Shown here piece by piece: positions 4,882 to 25,818 of a DNA stretch of 29,051 nt. How positions within the stretch are numbered: the first letter of the stretch is position 1; each line of letters opens with the position of its first letter. This stretch comes from a virus. Taxonomy: Duplodnaviria > Heunggongvirae > Uroviricota > Caudoviricetes. The stretch lies in IMG/VR virus record IMGVR_UViG_2778261705_000026. One strand, 5' to 3'. The notes beneath the pieces are model-generated. The model did no database searches. It saw only the letters and a list, made by a program, of their open reading frames with translations, and was not told where the DNA came from. The translations under genes and the position numbers were made by a program.

Positions 4882-5400
4882 TCACAGGCCGATATTGCGG
4901 CGGTGTTGCTCCAGCCGGTCGACGCCGTTCACCTTCTCAATCATGTTGATGGTGTCAATTTCGACCAGCTCCTTACCGTCCATCGTCAGCCGGAAATAGG
5001 TGCAGACCACGGAGATTTTCGACTCGGTGTCTTCTCCCTGTTTACCCTCGCCGGTGTCGATTTCTTTCTGACGTCCACGCATGACCACTTCGACGGCCAC
5101 CGTTTCGCCGGTATCGTCGCGCTGGTAAGAGCCTGCAAAACGAATCGGCACGGCATCCACACCGGTTGCGGCGTAAAGCTCCCAGATAACCGAATCAGGG
5201 AATCCACCGAGCGACCACTCCATTGACAGCGCATCATCATCAAGGCCGAGGTCTACCGGTGCGCTGCCGTTCATCCCCGCACCGCGATAGTTTTCGAGCT
5301 TACGGGTCAGTTTTGGCAGCGTGACGGACTTTGCAACGCCCTGATAGCTGTAGCCGTTCAGAAAGACGTTCATTAACTTGAGTTTGCGCGGCATTGCCAT
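4882..5400 (-). CDS. FII: Tail tube protein FII, 172 aa
   Basis: Size and position after the sheath gene match P2 gpFII; ATG start. Confidence 0.9.
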   Translation of the reverse strand: MAMPRKLKLMNVFLNGYSYQGVAKSVTLPKLTRKLENYRGAGMNGSAPVDLGLDDDALSMEWSLGGFPDSVIWELYAATGVDAVPIRFAGSYQRDDTGETVAVEVVMRGRQKEIDTGEGKQGEDTESKISVVCTYFRLTMDGKELVEIDTINMIEKVNGVDRLEQHRRNIGL

Positions 5401-8161: not shown

Positions 8162-8735
8162 CATCCGGCGCTGTGCTGGTATCCGTTGCCGTCACCGCGT
8201 CAATGTAATCCAGCACAGCGTTTAGTCGGGTGGTTTCTGTCTGCGTCAGCTTCCTCCCGGCCCGCAATTTCAGTTGAATCAGACTAATGGAAGCCATTGC
8301 TGCATCAATCAGCGACTGGCGCTGTGCTTCTGCTGCATCTACTGCGGCGCTATGCTGTGCCTCGGTATCCGTCACCCATTTCTCACCATCCCATTTATCA
8401 TATGGCGTTAATGGGGCGATAGTGGTTGTATTTTCAGGGTAATCACCCGGAGCTGTGATTTCTTTTGATTCCCCTGTTTCGGTGCTAAAAACGATTTCAC
8501 CGCGATGGTCTGGCATATATTCCCATGATTTTAAATCTGCTGAACGGCAGATTGCATAACCAGCCTTATGTGTGCCAGGGGCATCTAAACAGGAACATGC
8601 CGGAATGCCGACACCAACGGCAAGATATTCATTTGAAGTGGAAATATATTCCCGTGTTTCACCATCATAGTTATAAACGGTAACATCCCCTGCCTTTGTT
8701 GCAATGAGCTCACTATTTAATATTGCTTTATGCAT
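8133..8735 (-). CDS. G: Tail fibre assembly protein G (currently expressed orientation), 200 aa
   Basis: Conserved tfa C-terminal motif; ATG overlaps the H stop (ATGA); directly after H. Confidence 0.85.
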   Translation of the reverse strand: MHKAILNSELIATKAGDVTVYNYDGETREYISTSNEYLAVGVGIPACSCLDAPGTHKAGYAICRSADLKSWEYMPDHRGEIVFSTETGESKEITAPGDYPENTTTIAPLTPYDKWDGEKWVTDTEAQHSAAVDAAEAQRQSLIDAAMASISLIQLKLRAGRKLTQTETTRLNAVLDYIDAVTATDTSTAPDVIWPELPEA

Positions 8736-18756: not shown

Positions 18757-18929
18757 TGTCAGGAGTCCTGAATAGTGATTAGAGGAGTCACATGTCGGCA
18801 TCAGTTTCCCGACGATGCGCATCCTCCGCCATCAGTCCCGGATGGCTTATCACTGACACAACAGCACCTTAGCGAATCGCGGGGCGCGACTCAGTAGCCT
18901 TGCCGTGTATTCATCACGGCGAGGTATTC
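18757..18929. promoter_or_regulatory. Divergent late promoter region PO / PP
   Basis: Intergenic region between the divergently oriented O and P starts; imperfect dyad TGTCGG...CCGACg at 18793-18813 noted. Confidence 0.4.
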
Positions 18930-20702
18930 ATGACCATCACCACAGACACCACTCTTTTACACGACCCGCGTCGTCAGGCGGCGCTGCTGTACTGGCAGGG
19001 GTTTTCCGTGCCGCAGATTGCCGCCATGTTGCAGATGAAACGCCCGACGGTGCAGAGCTGGAAACAGCGCGACGGCTGGGACAGCGTTGCCCCCATCAGC
19101 CGTGTCGAAATGAGTCTGGAAGCGCGGCTGACCCAGCTCATCATCAAACCGCAGAAAACCGGCGGTGACTTCAAGGAAATTGACCTGCTCGGACGCCAGA
19201 TTGAACGACTGGCACGGGTCAACCGTTACAGTCAGACCGGCAACGAGGCAGACCTTAATCCGAACGTCGCTAACCGCAACAAAGGCGGGCGTCGCAAACC
19301 GAAAAAGAATTTTTTCAGTGACGAGGCCATCGAAAAGCTGGAGCAGATTTTCTTTGAGCAGTCTTTCGAATATCAGTTGCACTGGTATCGCGCCGGGCTT
19401 GAGCACCGCATCCGCGATATCCTGAAATCCCGCCAGATTGGCGCGACGTTTTATTTTTCCCGCGAGGCGCTGCTGCGCGCCCTGAAAACAGGTCATAACC
19501 AGATTTTTCTGTCGGCCAGTAAAACGCAGGCGTATGTGTTCCGTGAATACATCATCGCCTTTGCCCGGCTGGTTGACGTTGACCTGACCGGTGACCCGAT
19601 TGTCCTGGGCAATAACGGCGCAAAACTGATTTTTCTCGGCACCAACTCCAACACCGCGCAGAGCCATAACGGCGACCTGTACGTCGATGAGATTTTCTGG
19701 ATCCCGAATTTTCAGGTACTGCGTAAGGTGGCATCAGGTATGGCCTCACAGAGTCACCTGCGCTCGACCTATTTCTCCACCCCGTCCACGCTGGCGCACG
19801 ACGCCTACCCGTTCTGGTCAGGTGAACTGTTCAACCGGGGACGCGCCAGCGCCGCCGAACGCGTGGAAATCGACGTCAGTCATAACGCCCTTGCCGGTGG
19901 GCTTCTCTGTGCGGACGGCCAGTGGCGGCAGATTGTCACCATTGAGGACGCCCTGAAAGGCGGCTGCACACTGTTCGACATTGAGCAGCTCAAACGCGAA
20001 AACAGCGCCGACGATTTTAAAAACCTGTTCATGTGTGAATTTGTTGACGACAAGGCGTCGGTATTCCCGTTCGAGGAGCTGCAACGCTGCATGGTCGACA
20101 CGCTGGAAGAATGGGAAGACTATGCGCCGTTTGCCGCCAATCCGTTCGGCTCCCGCCCGGTATGGATTGGTTACGACCCGTCACACCGTGGCGACAGCGC
20201 CGGATGCGTGGTGCTGGCACCGCCGGTGGTGGCCGGTGGCAAATTCAGAATACTTGAGCGTCACCAGTGGAAAGGCATGGACTTTGCCACCCAGGCTGAA
20301 TCCATCCGCAAACTCACTGAAAAATACAACGTCGAATACATCGGTATTGATGCCACCGGCCTCGGTGTCGGCGTGTTCCAGCTCGTGCGCTCGTTCTATC
20401 CCGCCGCGCGTGATATCCGCTACACGCCGGAAATGAAAACCGCAATGGTGCTCAAGGCAAAAGACGTCATCCGCCGTGGCTGTCTGGAATATGACGTCAG
20501 CGCCACCGACATCACCAGCTCGTTTATGGCTATCCGCAAGACCATGACCAGCAGCGGACGCAGCGCCACCTATGAGGCCAGCCGCAGCGAGGAAGCCAGC
20601 CACGCCGACCTCGCCTGGGCGACCATGCACGCCCTGTTAAATGAGCCACTCACCGCCGGTATCAGCACCCCGCTGACATCCACCATTCTGGAGTTTTACT
20701 GA
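18930..20702 (+). CDS. P: Terminase ATPase (large) subunit P, 590 aa
   Basis: Begins MTITTDTTLLHDPRRQAALLYWQGFSVPQIAAMLQ...; GAGG ribosome-binding site at 18921-18924; the track start at 18900 is TTG. Confidence 0.92.
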   Translation: MTITTDTTLLHDPRRQAALLYWQGFSVPQIAAMLQMKRPTVQSWKQRDGWDSVAPISRVEMSLEARLTQLIIKPQKTGGDFKEIDLLGRQIERLARVNRYSQTGNEADLNPNVANRNKGGRRKPKKNFFSDEAIEKLEQIFFEQSFEYQLHWYRAGLEHRIRDILKSRQIGATFYFSREALLRALKTGHNQIFLSASKTQAYVFREYIIAFARLVDVDLTGDPIVLGNNGAKLIFLGTNSNTAQSHNGDLYVDEIFWIPNFQVLRKVASGMASQSHLRSTYFSTPSTLAHDAYPFWSGELFNRGRASAAERVEIDVSHNALAGGLLCADGQWRQIVTIEDALKGGCTLFDIEQLKRENSADDFKNLFMCEFVDDKASVFPFEELQRCMVDTLEEWEDYAPFAANPFGSRPVWIGYDPSHRGDSAGCVVLAPPVVAGGKFRILERHQWKGMDFATQAESIRKLTEKYNVEYIGIDATGLGVGVFQLVRSFYPAARDIRYTPEMKTAMVLKAKDVIRRGCLEYDVSATDITSSFMAIRKTMTSSGRSATYEASRSEEASHADLAWATMHALLNEPLTAGISTPLTSTILEFY

Positions 20703-21736
20703 TGAGCAAGAAAAAAGGGAAAACACCGCAACCTGCGGCAAAAAAAATGACCGCCAGCGCCCCGAAAATGGAGGCATTCACCTTTGGTGAGCCAGTGCCG
20801 GTACTCGACCGCCGTGACATTCTGGATTACGTCGAGTGCATCAGTAACGGCAGATGGTATGAGCCACCGGTCAGCTTTACCGGTCTGGCAAAAAGCCTGC
20901 GTGCTGCCGTGCATCACAGCTCGCCGATTTACGTCAAACGTAATATTCTGGCCTCGACATTTATCCCGCATCCGTGGCTTTCCCAGCAGGATTTCAGCCG
21001 CTTTGTGCTGGATTTTCTGGTGTTCGGTAATGCATTTCTGGAAAAGCGTTACAGCACCACCGGTAAGGTCATCAGACTGGAAACCTCACCGGCAAAATAT
21101 ACCCGCCGTGGCGTGGAGGAGGATGTTTACTGGTGGGTGCCGTCCTTCAACGAGCCGACAGCCTTCGCGCCCGGTTCCGTGTTTCACCTGCTGGAGCCGG
21201 ATATTAATCAGGAGCTGTACGGCCTGCCGGAATATCTCAGCGCCCTTAACTCTGCCTGGCTGAATGAGTCGGCCACGCTGTTCCGCCGCAAGTATTACGA
21301 AAACGGCGCACATGCCGGATACATCATGTACGTCACTGATGCCGTGCAGGATCGCAACGATATCGAAATGCTCCGCGAAAACATGGTGAAGTCGAAAGGC
21401 CGCAACAACTTTAAAAATCTGTTTCTCTATGCCCCGCAAGGGAAAGCCGACGGCATTAAAATTATCCCGCTCAGTGAAGTGGCAACGAAGGACGATTTTT
21501 TTAATATCAAAAAAGCCAGCGCCGCAGACCTGCTGGACGCGCACCGCATCCCTTTTCAGTTGATGGGCGGCAAGCCGGAGAACGTCGGGTCGCTGGGTGA
21601 TATTGAGAAAGTGGCAAAGGTCTTTGTCCGCAATGAGCTTATCCCGTTACAGGACAGGATCCGCGAGATAAACGGCTGGCTCGGTCAGGAGGTCATCCGC
21701 TTTAAAAACTACTCACTGGACACCGACAACGGCTGA
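20702..21736 (+). CDS. Q: Portal (capsid) protein Q, 344 aa
   Basis: Size and position match P2 gpQ; ATG overlaps the P stop (TGATG). Confidence 0.92.
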   Translation: MSKKKGKTPQPAAKKMTASAPKMEAFTFGEPVPVLDRRDILDYVECISNGRWYEPPVSFTGLAKSLRAAVHHSSPIYVKRNILASTFIPHPWLSQQDFSRFVLDFLVFGNAFLEKRYSTTGKVIRLETSPAKYTRRGVEEDVYWWVPSFNEPTAFAPGSVFHLLEPDINQELYGLPEYLSALNSAWLNESATLFRRKYYENGAHAGYIMYVTDAVQDRNDIEMLRENMVKSKGRNNFKNLFLYAPQGKADGIKIIPLSEVATKDDFFNIKKASAADLLDAHRIPFQLMGGKPENVGSLGDIEKVAKVFVRNELIPLQDRIREINGWLGQEVIRFKNYSLDTDNG

Positions 21737-21763: not shown

Positions 21764-21905
21764 ACACCCCGTCATCACGCCCTCACACGCTCACCACCGC
21801 ACAAAACACCCCGCAGACACACCAACGCCCCGGCGCACAATCCAAACGCCGTCACGACGCGCTGAGACGCTGAAAAAATAAAATCAGCACCACCGCCAGC
21901 GCGCA

Positions 21906-21924
21906 GTGCTTTCCCCGCCTCGCC
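21906..21924. other. cos: cos site (19-nt cohesive-end sequence; window shows GTGCTTTCCCCGCCTCGCC)
   Basis: Reverse complement equals GGCGAGGCGGGGAAAGCAC, which I recall as the P2 cohesive end; adjacent to Q as in P2. Confidence 0.6.
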
Positions 21925-22052
21925 CGCCCGCTTTATGGGTCGATTTTAATGCAAGTGCACGAACACACCGGAGGCGCACCAGTACTGGCGGTGGTCACGT
22001 AGGTCCACCCCTTAAAAGCCATGCAGAATAATGCAACTATTGCGGGCGTCGG

Positions 22053-22472
22053 CTAATCATCTTCTAAAGGTGGAATTTTGATGCCACTAATTAGCAGGAC
22101 TTTCCGGTATGCCTCAAAAATAATGTTGTGTGTTTTTTTTAAATCATCGAGCATTTTTTGTCGTCCTGTTGGGGTATTTCTGGCGAAATTATGAGCGCGA
22201 AAAAAATCATGTGCCAAGTAGTTTCGAGCTGATAGAGCCAGTTCTACATGTTGTAGAGTTTCATCATCTGCCACCCCTTTTTGACGCAATAAATTGCTTA
22301 GACTACCTAATGTTAACTTATCAAATTTTAAGAATTTTTCTTTTAATGTTGGAATGTCTTCACCTTGCTTCATTTCATGTTCGATAAGGACATTAATCAG
22401 TTCAGCTTCCAACAAGTGTGCAGCTTCTGAGGTGTAACCGAACTTCCAAAAGACTTCATCAAGTGTTGCCAT
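22053..22472 (-). CDS. Hypothetical cargo protein, 139 aa, all-helical, with Rx4HxF motif (candidate HEPN/HepT-like RNase)
   Basis: Visibly AT-rich compared with flanking phage genes; motif ...LALSARNYLAHDFFRAH...; ATG at 22470-22472 (the track start at 22481 is GTG); ends just before the cos flank. Confidence 0.6.
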   Translation of the reverse strand: MATLDEVFWKFGYTSEAAHLLEAELINVLIEHEMKQGEDIPTLKEKFLKFDKLTLGSLSNLLRQKGVADDETLQHVELALSARNYLAHDFFRAHNFARNTPTGRQKMLDDLKKTHNIIFEAYRKVLLISGIKIPPLEDD

Positions 22473-22609
22473 ATGTTCCACTCAAGATAAATGCAGGTTA
22501 TGAAAAAGAAGAATGATGATGGAAATTCCAGATGAAGTCTAACGCCTCGCTCCGCTCGTTGTTCAACCCCGCCAGCCCTGAAAACAAGTTTCACGACTGG
22601 CGGGGTTCT

Positions 22610-22816
22610 CTATCGTCTGCGTGGTGGTGGCGCAACTCTGGACTGACCGATATAGTTAAACCGCCCGTAATTATCCCGGACTATTTCAGCACACCCGACC
22701 AGCTCATCAGGTGTCAGATTTTCGTTGACCATAATCTGCTGTAGACGGTGAACAATGGCCATCAGCTTGATATTTTTAGTTTTATGGTGCGGTATCTCGC
22801 CTGGTATTCTGTGCAT
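22610..22816 (-). CDS. Possible small ORF (68 aa) translationally coupled to the upstream ASCH-like gene
   Basis: ATG 22814-22816 overlaps the upstream TAA (TAATG); followed 3 nt downstream by an 11-bp GC-rich hairpin; no recognisable domain; a plus-strand ORF 22532-22744 overlaps in antisense. Confidence 0.3.
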   Translation of the reverse strand: MHRIPGEIPHHKTKNIKLMAIVHRLQQIMVNENLTPDELVGCAEIVRDNYGRFNYIGQSRVAPPPRRR

Positions 22817-23271
22817 TATCCAAGCCACCCATGTTGCTTTGCACGCTCCACCTGTTCATCTGAATAGTTCCATGCTCCATCCGTGGCAACCATTGCCCCG
22901 CCTGACATCCCCGTATCTGGTTCATACATAACAGCAAGGCCGAGCTGATGCATAATTTCATGATTAATTCTGAATACCAGACCACGTTCACTAAGTTCTT
23001 TCCAGTTCACAATCTTATATGCGCCCGTATTAAGCAGCTCAATACTTAGCAAGACATAATCTTCCAGCCAGTCTGACAGGTCAGTAACATCTGTTATCCG
23101 GGCTTCAACCTTTCGCCCCGTAAACACACCCTGCACCCATTCATGCAAAATCAACGTGTCCCCGCGCTCATAATTACGGTCATTTTTCCTAAACTCTGCG
23201 CGTTTCTTTCCTTCCAGCACAAGGTCGAAATATTTTGCGTGCAGCTTTACCTCGTGAATTTTTGCCATCAT
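22816..23271 (-). CDS. ASCH/DUF3850-like protein with C-terminal HEIMH (HExxH) motif, about 151 aa
   Basis: N-terminus MAKIHEVKLHAKYFDLVLEGKKRAEFRKNDRNYERGDTLILHEW matches the DUF3850/ASCH pattern as I recall it; C-terminal RINHEIMHQLG; ATG overlaps the A stop (ATGA). Confidence 0.6.
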   Translation of the reverse strand: MMAKIHEVKLHAKYFDLVLEGKKRAEFRKNDRNYERGDTLILHEWVQGVFTGRKVEARITDVTDLSDWLEDYVLLSIELLNTGAYKIVNWKELSERGLVFRINHEIMHQLGLAVMYEPDTGMSGGAMVATDGAWNYSDEQVERAKQHGWLG

Positions 23272-25553
23272 GTCCACTCCATTACTGTTGAGAATCCCGG
23301 CCACTCATCAGTGACCGGATACGTGAATTTTTTCCCGTCATAATTTACAGTCGCGCCACGCGCCAGCGCCTCAATCTCCCATCGCTGAGGCCTGATACCG
23401 TTCTGAGCAAGGTCAACGCGGATACGGGTAATTTGCATTCGTTCCGACCGGGTCATTCTGGCCGATGGCGCTATTTCATGCGGTTTTAACGGGCCTCCGG
23501 CTCTTTGCTGACGGTTTGGTGTTCTCAGTCCGTGTTTTAATGCGCCCCTGAGCGCCCTCAAGACCTCCGGCTCATTCCATTCGATAACACCGTCATCAAC
23601 CAGATTAAGCACTGCTGCGGCGTGCTCAGAAGGTGTGGGAGCCGGTAACGAAGTATCACTACCGGTGAGCTTTCCACAGTTATTGACAGGACTCCGAGGC
23701 GCGGCGATGCCGCTTTTTAAAGTCAAAGGCTCCACGACCGGAACTTTCGGCACAATGCGCCAGTCCGTCGTTCTGGTGATATGAATATGACGCGCGCCGA
23801 GATGCGGCGCGTAAATGCCGACCACTCTCTCGACTTCTTCCTCGTACTCGTTAACTTCATCCGACGGGCTACGGGCGACTCTGACAGTCTGGCAATCGCG
23901 CGGAACATTTGCCCCACCCTGCGCACTGATATACAACGCAAAATCGCCACTGTCTGCGGCAGCGCGTGCAGCCTCGACGCGTTCGTCAAACTCATCAGCA
24001 ATGCTGACGCCGCGAGGCAATTTGCGTAGTTCACGGTAAGCCCCCATTGTCGGCAGACCAACCGTTTTAAATTGCGGGATGCGCCACGTTGACGCCCATG
24101 CAGTAACAGCCGCGGCAGTATCTTTCAGAGGTCTGCCGGTATCGTTATCGAGCTGACCATCCAGTGCATAGCCGTCGATGTTTTTTGAGATGTATTTCGC
24201 GATATACCCCGCAGCACCGCCCCGATTAAGGTGTTTTGCCTGAAAACGGTTTCGCGCGGCTCCTCTTTCGTCGCCATCCTCTTTGAGCGCATAGCGACGC
24301 ATGATTTCGATAATCTGGTTACGCTGGCGTGGATTACAAAAAAGCATCATATGCCAGTGCGGCGTTCCGTCGTGGTGTGGCTCGACGACTCGCAAACCGT
24401 AGACCTGTAAATCATTATCCTTGAATGCCGTGCGCATCAGGCTCCAGATACGGCAGAGATAACGCTGCGCATCCTTTGGATTAAATGCCTCATCATTCCA
24501 GCCGTGATTAAGCTGGACGGTTTTACTTTCGCCTTTTCCGACCTGACGTGTCGGGTGATACTTTGACGGCGCGGTCAGCGTGATAAACATCCCCACATCA
24601 CCCTCTGCGGCGGCGTAACGCTCAATACCGGCAATGGTGTTCATCAGCTCCATCCGGCGAATTTCAGGATTAGAAATACTGCCCATCACCTTACTGATAA
24701 GGTCGATGCGCTCGCCGGTTTCCCTGTTTTCAAGGTCACACGATTTAAGAAATTCCAGATTTGCCTGGCGGCGCGCACGCACATCACGAATGGCGTGTTT
24801 ACTGGCATAAGGAGAACGGTCTTTATTGACCTCCCCGACAGCTATCAGTAACGCTTCATGCCAGCGCATACGCTGGCCTTTAAGCTGATGAGTCCACCAC
24901 TCATCGTTAAACAGACGGGCAATGGCAGAATATGCCTGCCTCGTGGTCATCTGTCCTTTACGGTATTTTTTCCAGTAAAGCGGGGAAATATTGAAAGCAC
25001 GTGCAGCGCCAGCAACATGACCATACAGATGCGCCTGCGCCTCATCCGTAAACAGCGATTCTTTTTCGCCATGCGCATCCACCCAAGCATCGCAGAGTTC
25101 CTCATACATCATGAAAAGCTGCGATGAGATACGGGCGGCAAACTTTTTCAGATCCTTGTCATTCATCCCCGGCAGACGCGCATAGTGGTCACGCTCAGCC
25201 AGAAACAGCATCGACGCTTCGGTGTTCATTTCATGGCGCTGATTCACACGCTCAATGCGCGGCCATAAACGACGCTGAAAAGTGGATGTGAGGAAATAAA
25301 ACCCGTGCACCGGGCTTTTATTGCGCCGGATGTAGTCATAGCGTGAAGTAAACAGCGAGCGCAAAAAGTAAGGCAGGCGGTTAATCGTGGATAAAACACC
25401 TTGCACCTGACGCATCTCGTCACGTGTAAGGGGTCTTTCGCGCCCGACAGCCTCGCGTGGCGCGTTCCATGCATAAGCACCGGCAAACGTCTTACCGGTG
25501 CCTGCGGAAAATGCTGACGGAGGGACAAAACGCCCGGAGGCTTTAACGGCCAT
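23268..25553 (-). CDS. A: Replication initiation endonuclease A (rolling-circle initiator), 761 aa
   Basis: Begins MAVKASGRFVPPSAFSAGTGKTFAGAYAWNAPREAVGRERPLTRDEMRQVQ as P2 gpA; ATG 25551-25553; the track start at 25595 is an upstream extension. Confidence 0.92.
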   Translation of the reverse strand: MAVKASGRFVPPSAFSAGTGKTFAGAYAWNAPREAVGRERPLTRDEMRQVQGVLSTINRLPYFLRSLFTSRYDYIRRNKSPVHGFYFLTSTFQRRLWPRIERVNQRHEMNTEASMLFLAERDHYARLPGMNDKDLKKFAARISSQLFMMYEELCDAWVDAHGEKESLFTDEAQAHLYGHVAGAARAFNISPLYWKKYRKGQMTTRQAYSAIARLFNDEWWTHQLKGQRMRWHEALLIAVGEVNKDRSPYASKHAIRDVRARRQANLEFLKSCDLENRETGERIDLISKVMGSISNPEIRRMELMNTIAGIERYAAAEGDVGMFITLTAPSKYHPTRQVGKGESKTVQLNHGWNDEAFNPKDAQRYLCRIWSLMRTAFKDNDLQVYGLRVVEPHHDGTPHWHMMLFCNPRQRNQIIEIMRRYALKEDGDERGAARNRFQAKHLNRGGAAGYIAKYISKNIDGYALDGQLDNDTGRPLKDTAAAVTAWASTWRIPQFKTVGLPTMGAYRELRKLPRGVSIADEFDERVEAARAAADSGDFALYISAQGGANVPRDCQTVRVARSPSDEVNEYEEEVERVVGIYAPHLGARHIHITRTTDWRIVPKVPVVEPLTLKSGIAAPRSPVNNCGKLTGSDTSLPAPTPSEHAAAVLNLVDDGVIEWNEPEVLRALRGALKHGLRTPNRQQRAGGPLKPHEIAPSARMTRSERMQITRIRVDLAQNGIRPQRWEIEALARGATVNYDGKKFTYPVTDEWPGFSTVMEWT

Positions 25554-25818
25554 ATGAGCCAAAAGCCTCTGAACAACGCTTGCTGAGTTGCTCAACCTGC
25601 GCGTTTAAATCAGCAAAAGACTTTGCGCTTCCGGTCAGAATATCGTGATGCATCAGGCCGGAAACGAGCTGGCTTAATTTCGGATAATAACCAACCACCG
25701 CCAGCCATTCCTGACCGGCGTTTTTACCGCTTTCCGCTCTCTTTTTCTCGTGGAGAATAAACTGAAAGCTGTCACTGGTAACGACATAACGTTCGCCAAT
25801 TTCAATACGAATACTCAT
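25543..25818 (-). CDS. Small early-operon protein (P2 orf83 position), 91 aa
   Basis: ATG start; position immediately upstream of A in the early operon. Confidence 0.65.
   Translation of the reverse strand: MSIRIEIGERYVVTSDSFQFILHEKKRAESGKNAGQEWLAVVGYYPKLSQLVSGLMHHDILTGSAKSFADLNAQVEQLSKRCSEAFGSYGR

Follow-up and report, generated by a model that had tools for sequence, protein, structure and literature searches.

The locus and its two small open reading frames

The 29,051-nucleotide (nt) viral sequence IMGVR_UViG_2778261705_000026, hereafter the window, is that of a P2-like prophage, and its 334-bp interval at 22482-22815, identical (100%) to that of E. coli 06-3462, holds on the minus strand a small gene and a conserved 69-nt non-coding junction element, named E here (22539-22607), placed at the border between phage backbone and exchangeable cargo. 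The locus is the 'TO region', the cos-proximal hotspot between replication gene A (23268-25595, minus strand) and the portal gene (20702-21736, plus strand), which harbours tin/old in P2 itself and, in relatives, a large number of defence systems. Downstream of gene A lies an early-operon backbone gene of the P2 orf91 family (22816-23304, minus strand), called the ASCH gene by the first-pass annotation, whose product combines DUF3850/ASCH with DUF7415 (Pfam PF12961, PF24187 and PF04266; annotation of L001, W-phi and P2). On the other side of E, the sole cargo gene of the hotspot in the window prophage encodes a 142-amino acid (aa) PSP3 gp38-like protein (22053-22481, minus strand; phrog_12893, E-value 1.2e-82; ~70% nucleotide homology to PSP3) that found no match in PADLOC, NCBIfam or Pfam. 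It is separated from E by a cargo-specific leader of 57 nt (22482-22538, minus strand), conserved only within the PSP3-gp38-type cargo class, in which a promoter scan detected no consensus promoter.

The interval had been described as a spacer within a cargo island, a description that does not hold for most of its length: 22539-22816 consists of the small gene and E, both conserved in P2-, W-phi-, PSP3- and 186-type phages, and is thus mostly backbone. BLAST searches found 22539-22815 conserved in P2-like, W-phi, PSP3/SEN1, Yersinia, Klebsiella and Erwinia phages and present in 564 of 5,426 E. coli genomes; 22482-22538 was not conserved. Among the viral contigs fetched with the 68-aa protein of the small gene, homology to the window ends at 22539 in nearly all of 80, and the alignment breaks directly after ...GGCGTTAG on the minus strand. 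The left border between backbone and cargo is therefore at 22538|22539, inside the 334-bp interval.

Two small open reading frames (ORFs), one per strand, had been noted in the interval with the proviso that at most one of them is real, and the minus-strand frame is the real one. Its ATG (22816-22814) overlaps the TAA of the upstream gene as TAATG, as had been pointed out, and its TAG lies at 22612-22610; the gene (22610-22816; PGAP WP_000554767.1) matches phrog_11386 over its full length (E-value 8.9e-41, residues 1-68 of the protein on a 69-position profile). Most of 89 homologues keep the frame open, at lengths that vary in frame between 67 and 78 aa; variable sites are distributed 19/14/46 over the three codon positions and the median pairwise dN/dS is 0.085, as befits a genuine conserved gene. 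The protein has an invariant core, KLMAIVHRLQQIMVNENLTPxELVGCAEIVRDN, and a conserved C-terminus, PPPRR(R/P); no match to it was found in Pfam, NCBIfam, PADLOC or PDB, and a single-sequence AlphaFold2 model yielded a low-confidence two-helix hairpin (pLDDT 60). The 15-25 residues preceding the PPPRR(R/P) end (22610-22630) are highly variable in length and sequence. Given that this polyproline stretch ends 2 nt before a strong hairpin, it could couple translation termination to folding of the stem.

The plus-strand ORF of 70 aa (22532-22744) is present in the window as described, and matches phrog_33524, although this match merely mirrors annotation by others. Its start codon, the ATG at 22532, falls within the leader of the cargo, which is not conserved, and across 82 homologous contexts the frame stays open for anything from 3 to ~99 codons, with frequent stops, often just upstream of the conserved zone, and no conserved start. 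With a start beyond the conserved zone and a frame interrupted in most homologues, this ORF is spurious, an annotation artefact. For annotators, the practical points are that the 68-aa gene is real, that the antisense phrog_33524 ORF is an artefact and that the cargo begins exactly after ...GTTAG, the 3' end of E.

A few lineages depart from the usual organization of the small gene. In a Trabulsiella prophage (L090) its TAG stop is changed to CAG and the frame reads through E to give a 118-aa product, whereas a second one (L098) has kept the stop and encodes 78 aa; in both, an ATG is missing where the alignment puts the start. In W-phi (L003 3662-3856) the gene is frameshifted (MHRIPGEIPAPIKLKISS*), and the deposited 'gp92' covers part of the region.

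Structure and conservation of the element

On the minus strand, E reads AACCCCGCCAGTCGTGAAACTTGTTTTCAGGGCTGGCGGGGTT-GAACAACGAGC-GGA-GCGAGGCGTTAG and consists of a hairpin, HP1 (22565-22607), followed by a tail of 26 nt (22539-22564) conserved in sequence. The consensus of the family is AACGCCGCCAGTGCTGAAACTTGTTTTCAGTGCTGGCGGGGTT-GAACAACGAGC-NNN-GCGAGGCGTTAG. An 11-bp stem around a 21-nt loop had been recognized here in the first-pass annotation: the two 11-mers, AACCCCGCCAG (22565-22575) and CTGGCGGGGTT (22597-22607), are indeed perfectly complementary, but most of the supposed loop is itself paired. The arms of HP1 are 19 nt each (22607-22589 and 22583-22565), 89% complementary, and enclose a loop of 5 nt (22588-22584); they form one continuous helix with a single conserved G.G mismatch and no bulged bases. 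The distance between the stop codon of the 68-aa ORF and the stem is 2 nt, rather than 3. The rarity of a perfect 11-bp stem is in itself a weak argument, as 0.22 such stems (loop of 30 nt or less) are expected per window after shuffling and two are observed; the significance of HP1 comes instead from its conservation, covariation and folding energy. The sole other perfect 11-bp inverted repeat of the window, CGCTGTGCTGG, is found at 8169-8179 and 8210-8220 with a 30-nt spacer.

Covariation across homologues, one of the checks proposed for this hairpin, gave a clear answer. In 56 distinct sequences, the predicted pairs are maintained in 91.2% of cells and double changes have occurred at 9 of the 19 pairs, values reached by 0 of 500 shuffles and far above those of controls in which the arms were slid. 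The stem is kept in the P2/186-type relatives, the conservation that had been asked of it; several 186-like phages carry a diverged copy of E (AACCGTGCTGGCGCAAAAACTAGCTTTTTGCGTCGGCGGGGTT...) in which the 19-bp stem is retained with a different apical sequence. The pairing is strand-specific. HP1 contains ~113 G.U cells when folded as the minus strand as opposed to ~6 on the plus strand; a folding energy of -35.5 kcal/mol (z = -4.7, minus strand) is obtained for the 69-nt element, and z values of -4.7, -4.2 and -4.4 in the sense orientation compare with -3.2, -0.6 and -1.05 in antisense. DNA folding parameters point in the same strand direction, less sharply. A covariance model scores E of the window at 95.1 bits on the minus strand versus 29.6 bits on the plus strand, and ranges over the members from 46-95 bits in sense to 15-33 bits in antisense. 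The P2-type stem is nearly perfect on both strands, and the antisense fold of the 186-type is no better than random. Comparative analysis thus indicates that HP1 is a selected structure folding well only on the minus strand, the sense strand of the early operon, and a role at the RNA level, as the first-pass annotation had considered, would be the simplest reading of a fold that works on the sense strand only.

The same data bear on the proposal that E is an operator in double-stranded DNA, the inverted repeat serving a dimeric phage or host regulator. Most members of the family share a highly conserved apical sequence, CTGAAA-N5-TTTCAG, as would be expected of such a site. However, the stem is maintained with G.U wobbles, to which A.C mismatches correspond on the complementary strand, and this is a property of single strands; the diverged copy swaps its apical sequence and keeps the pairing, and inspection disclosed no match to LexA, integration host factor (IHF) or P2 late-promoter dyad sites. 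We consider this explanation to be highly improbable.

Beyond the hairpin, the tail, which had escaped the first-pass annotation along with the repetition of E and its position at the hotspot border, comprises a near-invariant core (GAACAAC), a near-invariant Shine-Dalgarno-like GAGG at 22548-22545, a hypervariable triplet at 22553-22551 and a terminal TTAG that is likewise near-invariant. Divergence of E reaches a plateau at ~0.15-0.17, compared with 0.54 at adjacent four-fold degenerate sites; this roughly threefold slower rate shows that E is under purifying selection. A second hairpin in the tail, possible in two registers, and a closing helix AACGCC/GGCGTT are paired in 90-93% of cells and display no covariation. 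The loop motif C-N-N-G-Y, the conserved G.G and U.G positions and the invariant tail, taken together, are suggestive of recognition by some factor. At positions 51-53 of E, GAG alternates with TCG, giving a perfect CTCGC-NNN-GCGAG mini-hairpin in scattered lineages (L023, L082-L085, L068 at 2808-2876 and L005 at 1014-1082), and this polymorphism looks like templated (quasi-palindrome) conversion rather than the outcome of point mutations.

Attempts to assign E to a known family met with little success. Rfam 15, searched at gathering and permissive thresholds, returned no family hit at threshold in the whole window, the best sub-threshold match being the terminator part of RybB (18.6 bits versus a threshold of 40, E-value 0.89, plus strand). 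A tRNA or retron-like nature was weighed from context only and set aside; there is no reverse transcriptase here, and no tRNA scan was run. By inspection, outward promoters (sigma-70, -32, -E and -54), a LexA box, an IHF site, lambda boxB/nut and the P2 late-promoter dyad do not fit E. Participation of the hairpin in a stand-alone small RNA, as the first-pass annotation had suggested, appears unlikely given that conserved promoter and terminator sequences flanking E are absent.

Three short resemblances to sites of DNA processing were also found and are attributed either to chance, the sequence being rich in GC, or to the stem, from which they would arise as by-products; none of them places a cut at the observed border of E. 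The 8-mer GCGAGGCG is common to the E tail (22543-22550) and the cos end (21914-21922), and the 7-mer CGCCTCG, its complement, lies on the opposite strand, immediately 5' of the position at which gpA nicks the P2 origin (L004 3886-3893). This sharing between E, cos and ori is probably due to chance, although cos and ori are both sites cut by phage enzymes. A Chi-like octamer, GCTGGCGG (Chi being GCTGGTGG), occupies the 3' arm of HP1 (22567-22574, minus strand) in the orientation met by RecBCD entering from the right cos end, and recurs at 21892-21899 beside cos; since the stem positions covary, its occurrence in the stem is likely incidental.

Probable expression across the element

The hairpin had been held not to be a canonical intrinsic terminator, and this view is borne out. 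HP1 is a stable, GC-rich stem-loop, as in such terminators, but the 3' U-tract is missing: next to the stem come GAACAACG (minus strand) and CTCTATCG (plus strand), neither strand carries a U-tract in the window or in homologues, and a terminator scan does not call the site. The most informative relative is phage 186, in which E (L086 4845-4913) lies between the stop codon of orf97 and t95b (4937-4964), annotated in the GenBank record as 'p95 transcript terminator', a canonical hairpin with a T-run 23 nt past E. On the basis of this arrangement, E is apparently not the terminator in phage 186 and would be read through there. The genes found upstream of E (the small ORF, 186 orf97, orf97-like genes and the DinI-like TumB) end 1-16 nt before it, and in most cargo classes the first gene runs in the direction of E and begins 13-250 nt after it. 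In four cargo classes, long ORFs start at +2 to +4, with the GAGG of the tail 7-9 nt before their ATG; these can be expressed only from a transcript that crosses E, and the spacing identifies the GAGG of the E tail as the ribosome-binding site that some cargo ORFs use. A cargo family of 85-87 aa is joined to E either through its own 16-nt leader and Shine-Dalgarno sequence or through 3 nt only.

The position of E is also that of ordinary terminators in relatives, namely t95a after tum in 186 and a terminator after the orf97-like gene of L010, which argues for a 3'-end or intercistronic role. A non-canonical stop or attenuator of transcription, factor-dependent or partial and possibly bidirectional in the P2-types, would insulate the operon (early or SOS) from the cargo and block convergent transcription of the latter. 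Such a function would be in keeping with the location of E directly behind stop codons, with the terminators just mentioned, with the few cargo genes that are convergent and whose stop codons lie 1-2 nt from E, with the near-perfect P2-type stem on both strands, and with the weak plus-strand resemblance to the RybB terminator (E-value 0.89). The lack of a U-tract on either strand in the window and its homologues, the annotated terminator 23 nt downstream of E in 186, the need of read-through for cargo ORFs starting 2-38 nt past E, and the antisense fold of the 186-type, no better than random, all speak against it, and we regard it as unlikely.

Hairpins without U-tracts are known between cistrons and at mRNA 3' ends, among them REP-type stabilisers, the RNase III sites of T7 and lambda sib. 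E resembles these in having a GC-rich stem of ~19 bp right after a stop codon within a polycistronic unit that would be read through, in its conserved internal mismatches and in folding as the sense strand, and its geometry (19 bp, a conserved mismatch, intercistronic location) fits a putative processing hairpin of the RNase III type. It differs from them by the additional sequence-conserved tail and conserved loop motif. As opposed to REP/BIME and ERIC sequences, E is not dispersed through the host chromosome, where it occupies a median of one place per genome.

Cargo exchange at the element

E was found only in P2/186-type phages of Enterobacterales, as far as the scanned sequences tell. An exact-pattern scan of one genome per species retrieved 13 true copies, all in Enterobacterales and in a P2/186-type prophage context. 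E. coli genomes carry E at a median of one and a maximum of two places, always in a P2-type prophage context; plasmid hits proved to be P2 prophages inside IncC plasmids, and P4 satellites, which share the cos-proximal hairpin, were found to lack E. Canonical P2 itself has neither the small gene nor E, its tin/old insert abutting a shortened orf91, from which it follows that E is dispensable for growth. The orf91 product is 109 aa long in canonical P2, as opposed to 150-162 aa. E is partially deleted at some loci, being lost or truncated where the locus is otherwise intact.

These absences also weigh on the idea that E is a replication signal on the displaced strand, a hairpin for single-strand initiation or primosome loading on the lagging strand of P2 rolling-circle replication. 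The fold is specific to the strand of the ori nick, E lies ~1 kb downstream of ori, and a layout of hairpin plus tail resembles known single-strand initiation elements. Canonical P2, however, replicates normally without E, otherwise intact loci have lost or truncated it, and neither its duplication around cassettes nor its link with the cargo border would be explained, making this a very unlikely role.

A second scan of viral contigs brought the set of E contexts to 221 loci and 158 non-identical contexts, in which E is flanked by ~25 upstream classes and ~49 unrelated downstream classes. Averaged over the representatives of the 31 downstream classes in the first set, identity is complete (1.00) up to the terminal TAG and drops to 0.32, 0.29 and 0.30 at +1 to +3; the cargo starts exactly after ...GTTAG. 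Leftover bases after TTAG (CAT in 5 of 49 classes) were not significant after multiple-testing correction. E is present once in 165 of 199 contigs and as two direct copies in the remaining 34, never more. Where there are two copies, the arrangement seen most often is E-[115-nt leader + small ORF]-E, with a spacing of 405 nt; another is E-orf97-like gene-E-second gene.

Linkage of the parts of E with their flanks was assessed by comparing mismatches in pairs that share one flank with an unlinked baseline of pairs differing in both. Where the upstream 90 nt are the same (≤6% divergent) and the cargo unrelated (231 pairs, 58 class pairs), the mismatch in HP1 is 0.27-0.38 of baseline and that in the tail 0.77-1.26, the tail being more divergent than HP1 in 45 of the 58 class pairs. 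Where the cargo is the same and the upstream region unrelated (18 pairs, 6 classes), HP1 stands at 0.52-0.61 of baseline and positions 51-57 at 0.14. HP1 thus tends to stay linked to the gene before it, and the tail to the cargo that follows. Explicit mosaics exist in which a single tail-plus-cargo unit follows orf97, TumB, the small ORF or another gene, with differences that are confined to HP1 and often compensatory. These patterns strongly suggest that historical junctions fell inside E around the invariant GGGGTTGAACAAC and not at its 3' edge. Because the linkage switches inside it, E has served as a linker for module exchange.

In this respect E recalls the module 'linkers' or boundary sequences of temperate phages that belong to the modular theory of Susskind and Botstein and were reported in lambdoid phages. 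Like them, it is a short conserved sequence between non-homologous modules with crossovers inside it, and one downstream module can occur after various upstream ones. E is distinguished from such linkers by its structure, which is strand-specific, covarying and under purifying selection, by its nucleotide-exact borders and by its restriction to one locus of one phage family.

We propose, with an even chance of being right, that E is a 69-nt read-through RNA module and cargo-exchange linker between the last backbone gene and the hotspot. Phages of the P2/186 family keep E right after the last gene preceding the cos-proximal accessory (tin/old, defence) hotspot and would transcribe it within the sense mRNA of the early operon in P2-types, or of the SOS operon in 186-types, without terminating there. 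The hairpin (~-30 kcal/mol), 1-16 nt past the upstream stop codon, may stabilise the 3' end of the upstream cistron or direct its processing, and may also insulate that cistron; the single-stranded tail with its GAGG may provide the 5' leader of the following cargo. As DNA, E is the only sequence common to otherwise unrelated upstream genes and cargo and hence also an exchange linker, its crossovers lying after HP1 and before the tail's variable triplet. The hairpin noticed in the first-pass annotation is confirmed as an observation, and the interpretation given there is partly supported.

Several considerations weigh against this proposal. Read-through rests on the 186 GenBank annotation and on gene geometry; G.T wobbles are tolerated in single-stranded DNA as well, so that the strand asymmetry is no proof of a role as RNA; and the linkage pairs are not phylogenetically independent, with six classes only in the set sharing cargo but not upstream regions. 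A plain stabiliser hairpin would leave the conservation of the tail and of the C-N-N-G-Y loop motif unexplained, making a recognising factor probable. Finally, for cargo acquired for the first time, selection combined with homologous exchange would predict a less sharp 3' border than the exact one observed in ~49 classes.

A rival explanation is that E is a site devoted to recombination, which would work as a folded single strand of DNA like integron attC sites or the attP hairpin of CTX phage and be cut or exchanged at a fixed point by a phage or host recombinase or nuclease, the hotspot then being a small cassette system. Nucleotide-exact borders on both sides in many unrelated contexts, the proximity of E to stop codons, which is also seen with attC sites, and the direct repeats around single-gene units (the small-ORF unit with its 405-nt spacing and the orf97-like genes) are all compatible with such a site. 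So are the position of the linkage switch, in the invariant core GTTGAAC that fits the attC R' consensus GTTRRRY, and the joining of the leaders of one cargo family to E at different distances, precise on the side of E and imprecise on that of the cargo. The foldable strand is, moreover, the gene-A sense strand, annotated as carrying the ori nick, and it is this nicked strand that rolling-circle replication displaces as single-stranded DNA. The similarity to attC extends to a hairpin-forming imperfect inverted repeat located between cassette ORFs, to a fold specific to one strand and to direct repeats flanking single-gene units.

There are also differences from attC. No integron-type integrase (IntI) or attI is present, the annotated neighbours being P2 backbone genes only; a phage carries at most two copies, and the terminal cargo has no site of its own; and E lacks the extrahelical bases and the unpaired central spacer of attC, and is far more uniform in sequence than attC sites are among themselves. 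The core GTTGAAC is nearly invariant and fits R', but of the R'' consensus RYYYAAC only AAC is conserved, the four preceding bases being variable, so that a conserved partner is not apparent. The likeness to the gpA nick site and cos amounts to a 7-8-mer in GC-rich sequence, and homologous recombination over the 20-odd identical bases of the core would give the same linkage pattern. A dedicated recombination site of this kind is accordingly, in our estimation, rather improbable. More doubtful still is its extension to a minimal integron-like cassette system in P2/186-family phages, in which the folded sense strand would be exposed as displaced single-stranded DNA during rolling-circle replication and an enzyme would recognise it and cut or exchange at the GTTGAAC core or after TTAG; if true, this would account both for a border exact to the nucleotide and for the fast turnover of the hotspot's defence genes. 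A paper by Nilsson et al. 2004 (Mol Biol Evol 21:1), to go by its title, points to site-specific recombination and may already describe E.

The region between gene A and cos of P2-like phages is among the best-studied reservoirs of anti-phage defence systems, and, returning to the proposed read-through module and linker, E offers a concrete and mutable target for studies of both cargo exchange and cargo expression (read-through, processing and borrowed ribosome-binding site). No transcriptome of a P2-type prophage was found in the literature. E coincides with the left border of the described hotspot and, through t95a/t95b of 186 and the TO region of P2, with a locus already known; it is unannotated in the 186, P2-like and PGAP records. 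Rousset 2022 and a study of thousands of P2/P4 hotspots (NAR 2026 gkag898) both state that the exchange mechanism is unknown, a circumstance that leaves room for a recombination site, and mention neither a hairpin, stem-loop or terminator nor a conserved boundary element; 'conserved sequence' occurs once in Rousset 2022, with reference to the cos-proximal region of P4.

At the opposite end of the hotspot, the right limit is set by the 19-nt cohesive end of cos, GGCGAGGCGGGGAAAGCAC (21906-21924, minus strand), beyond which lie the portal gene and the terminase gene (18900-20702, plus strand). The homology border on the cos side, between 21959 and 22001, is ragged by comparison with that at E. 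A short palindrome, CCGCCAGTACTGGTG, is located at 21975-21992, just inside the cos-proximal conserved region; it was considered as a relic of E and rejected, being part of cos and common to P4. Its counterparts are found in 186 (L086 5055-5075) and P4 (L101 11560-11580), and several cargo-side homology breaks fall in or beside it.

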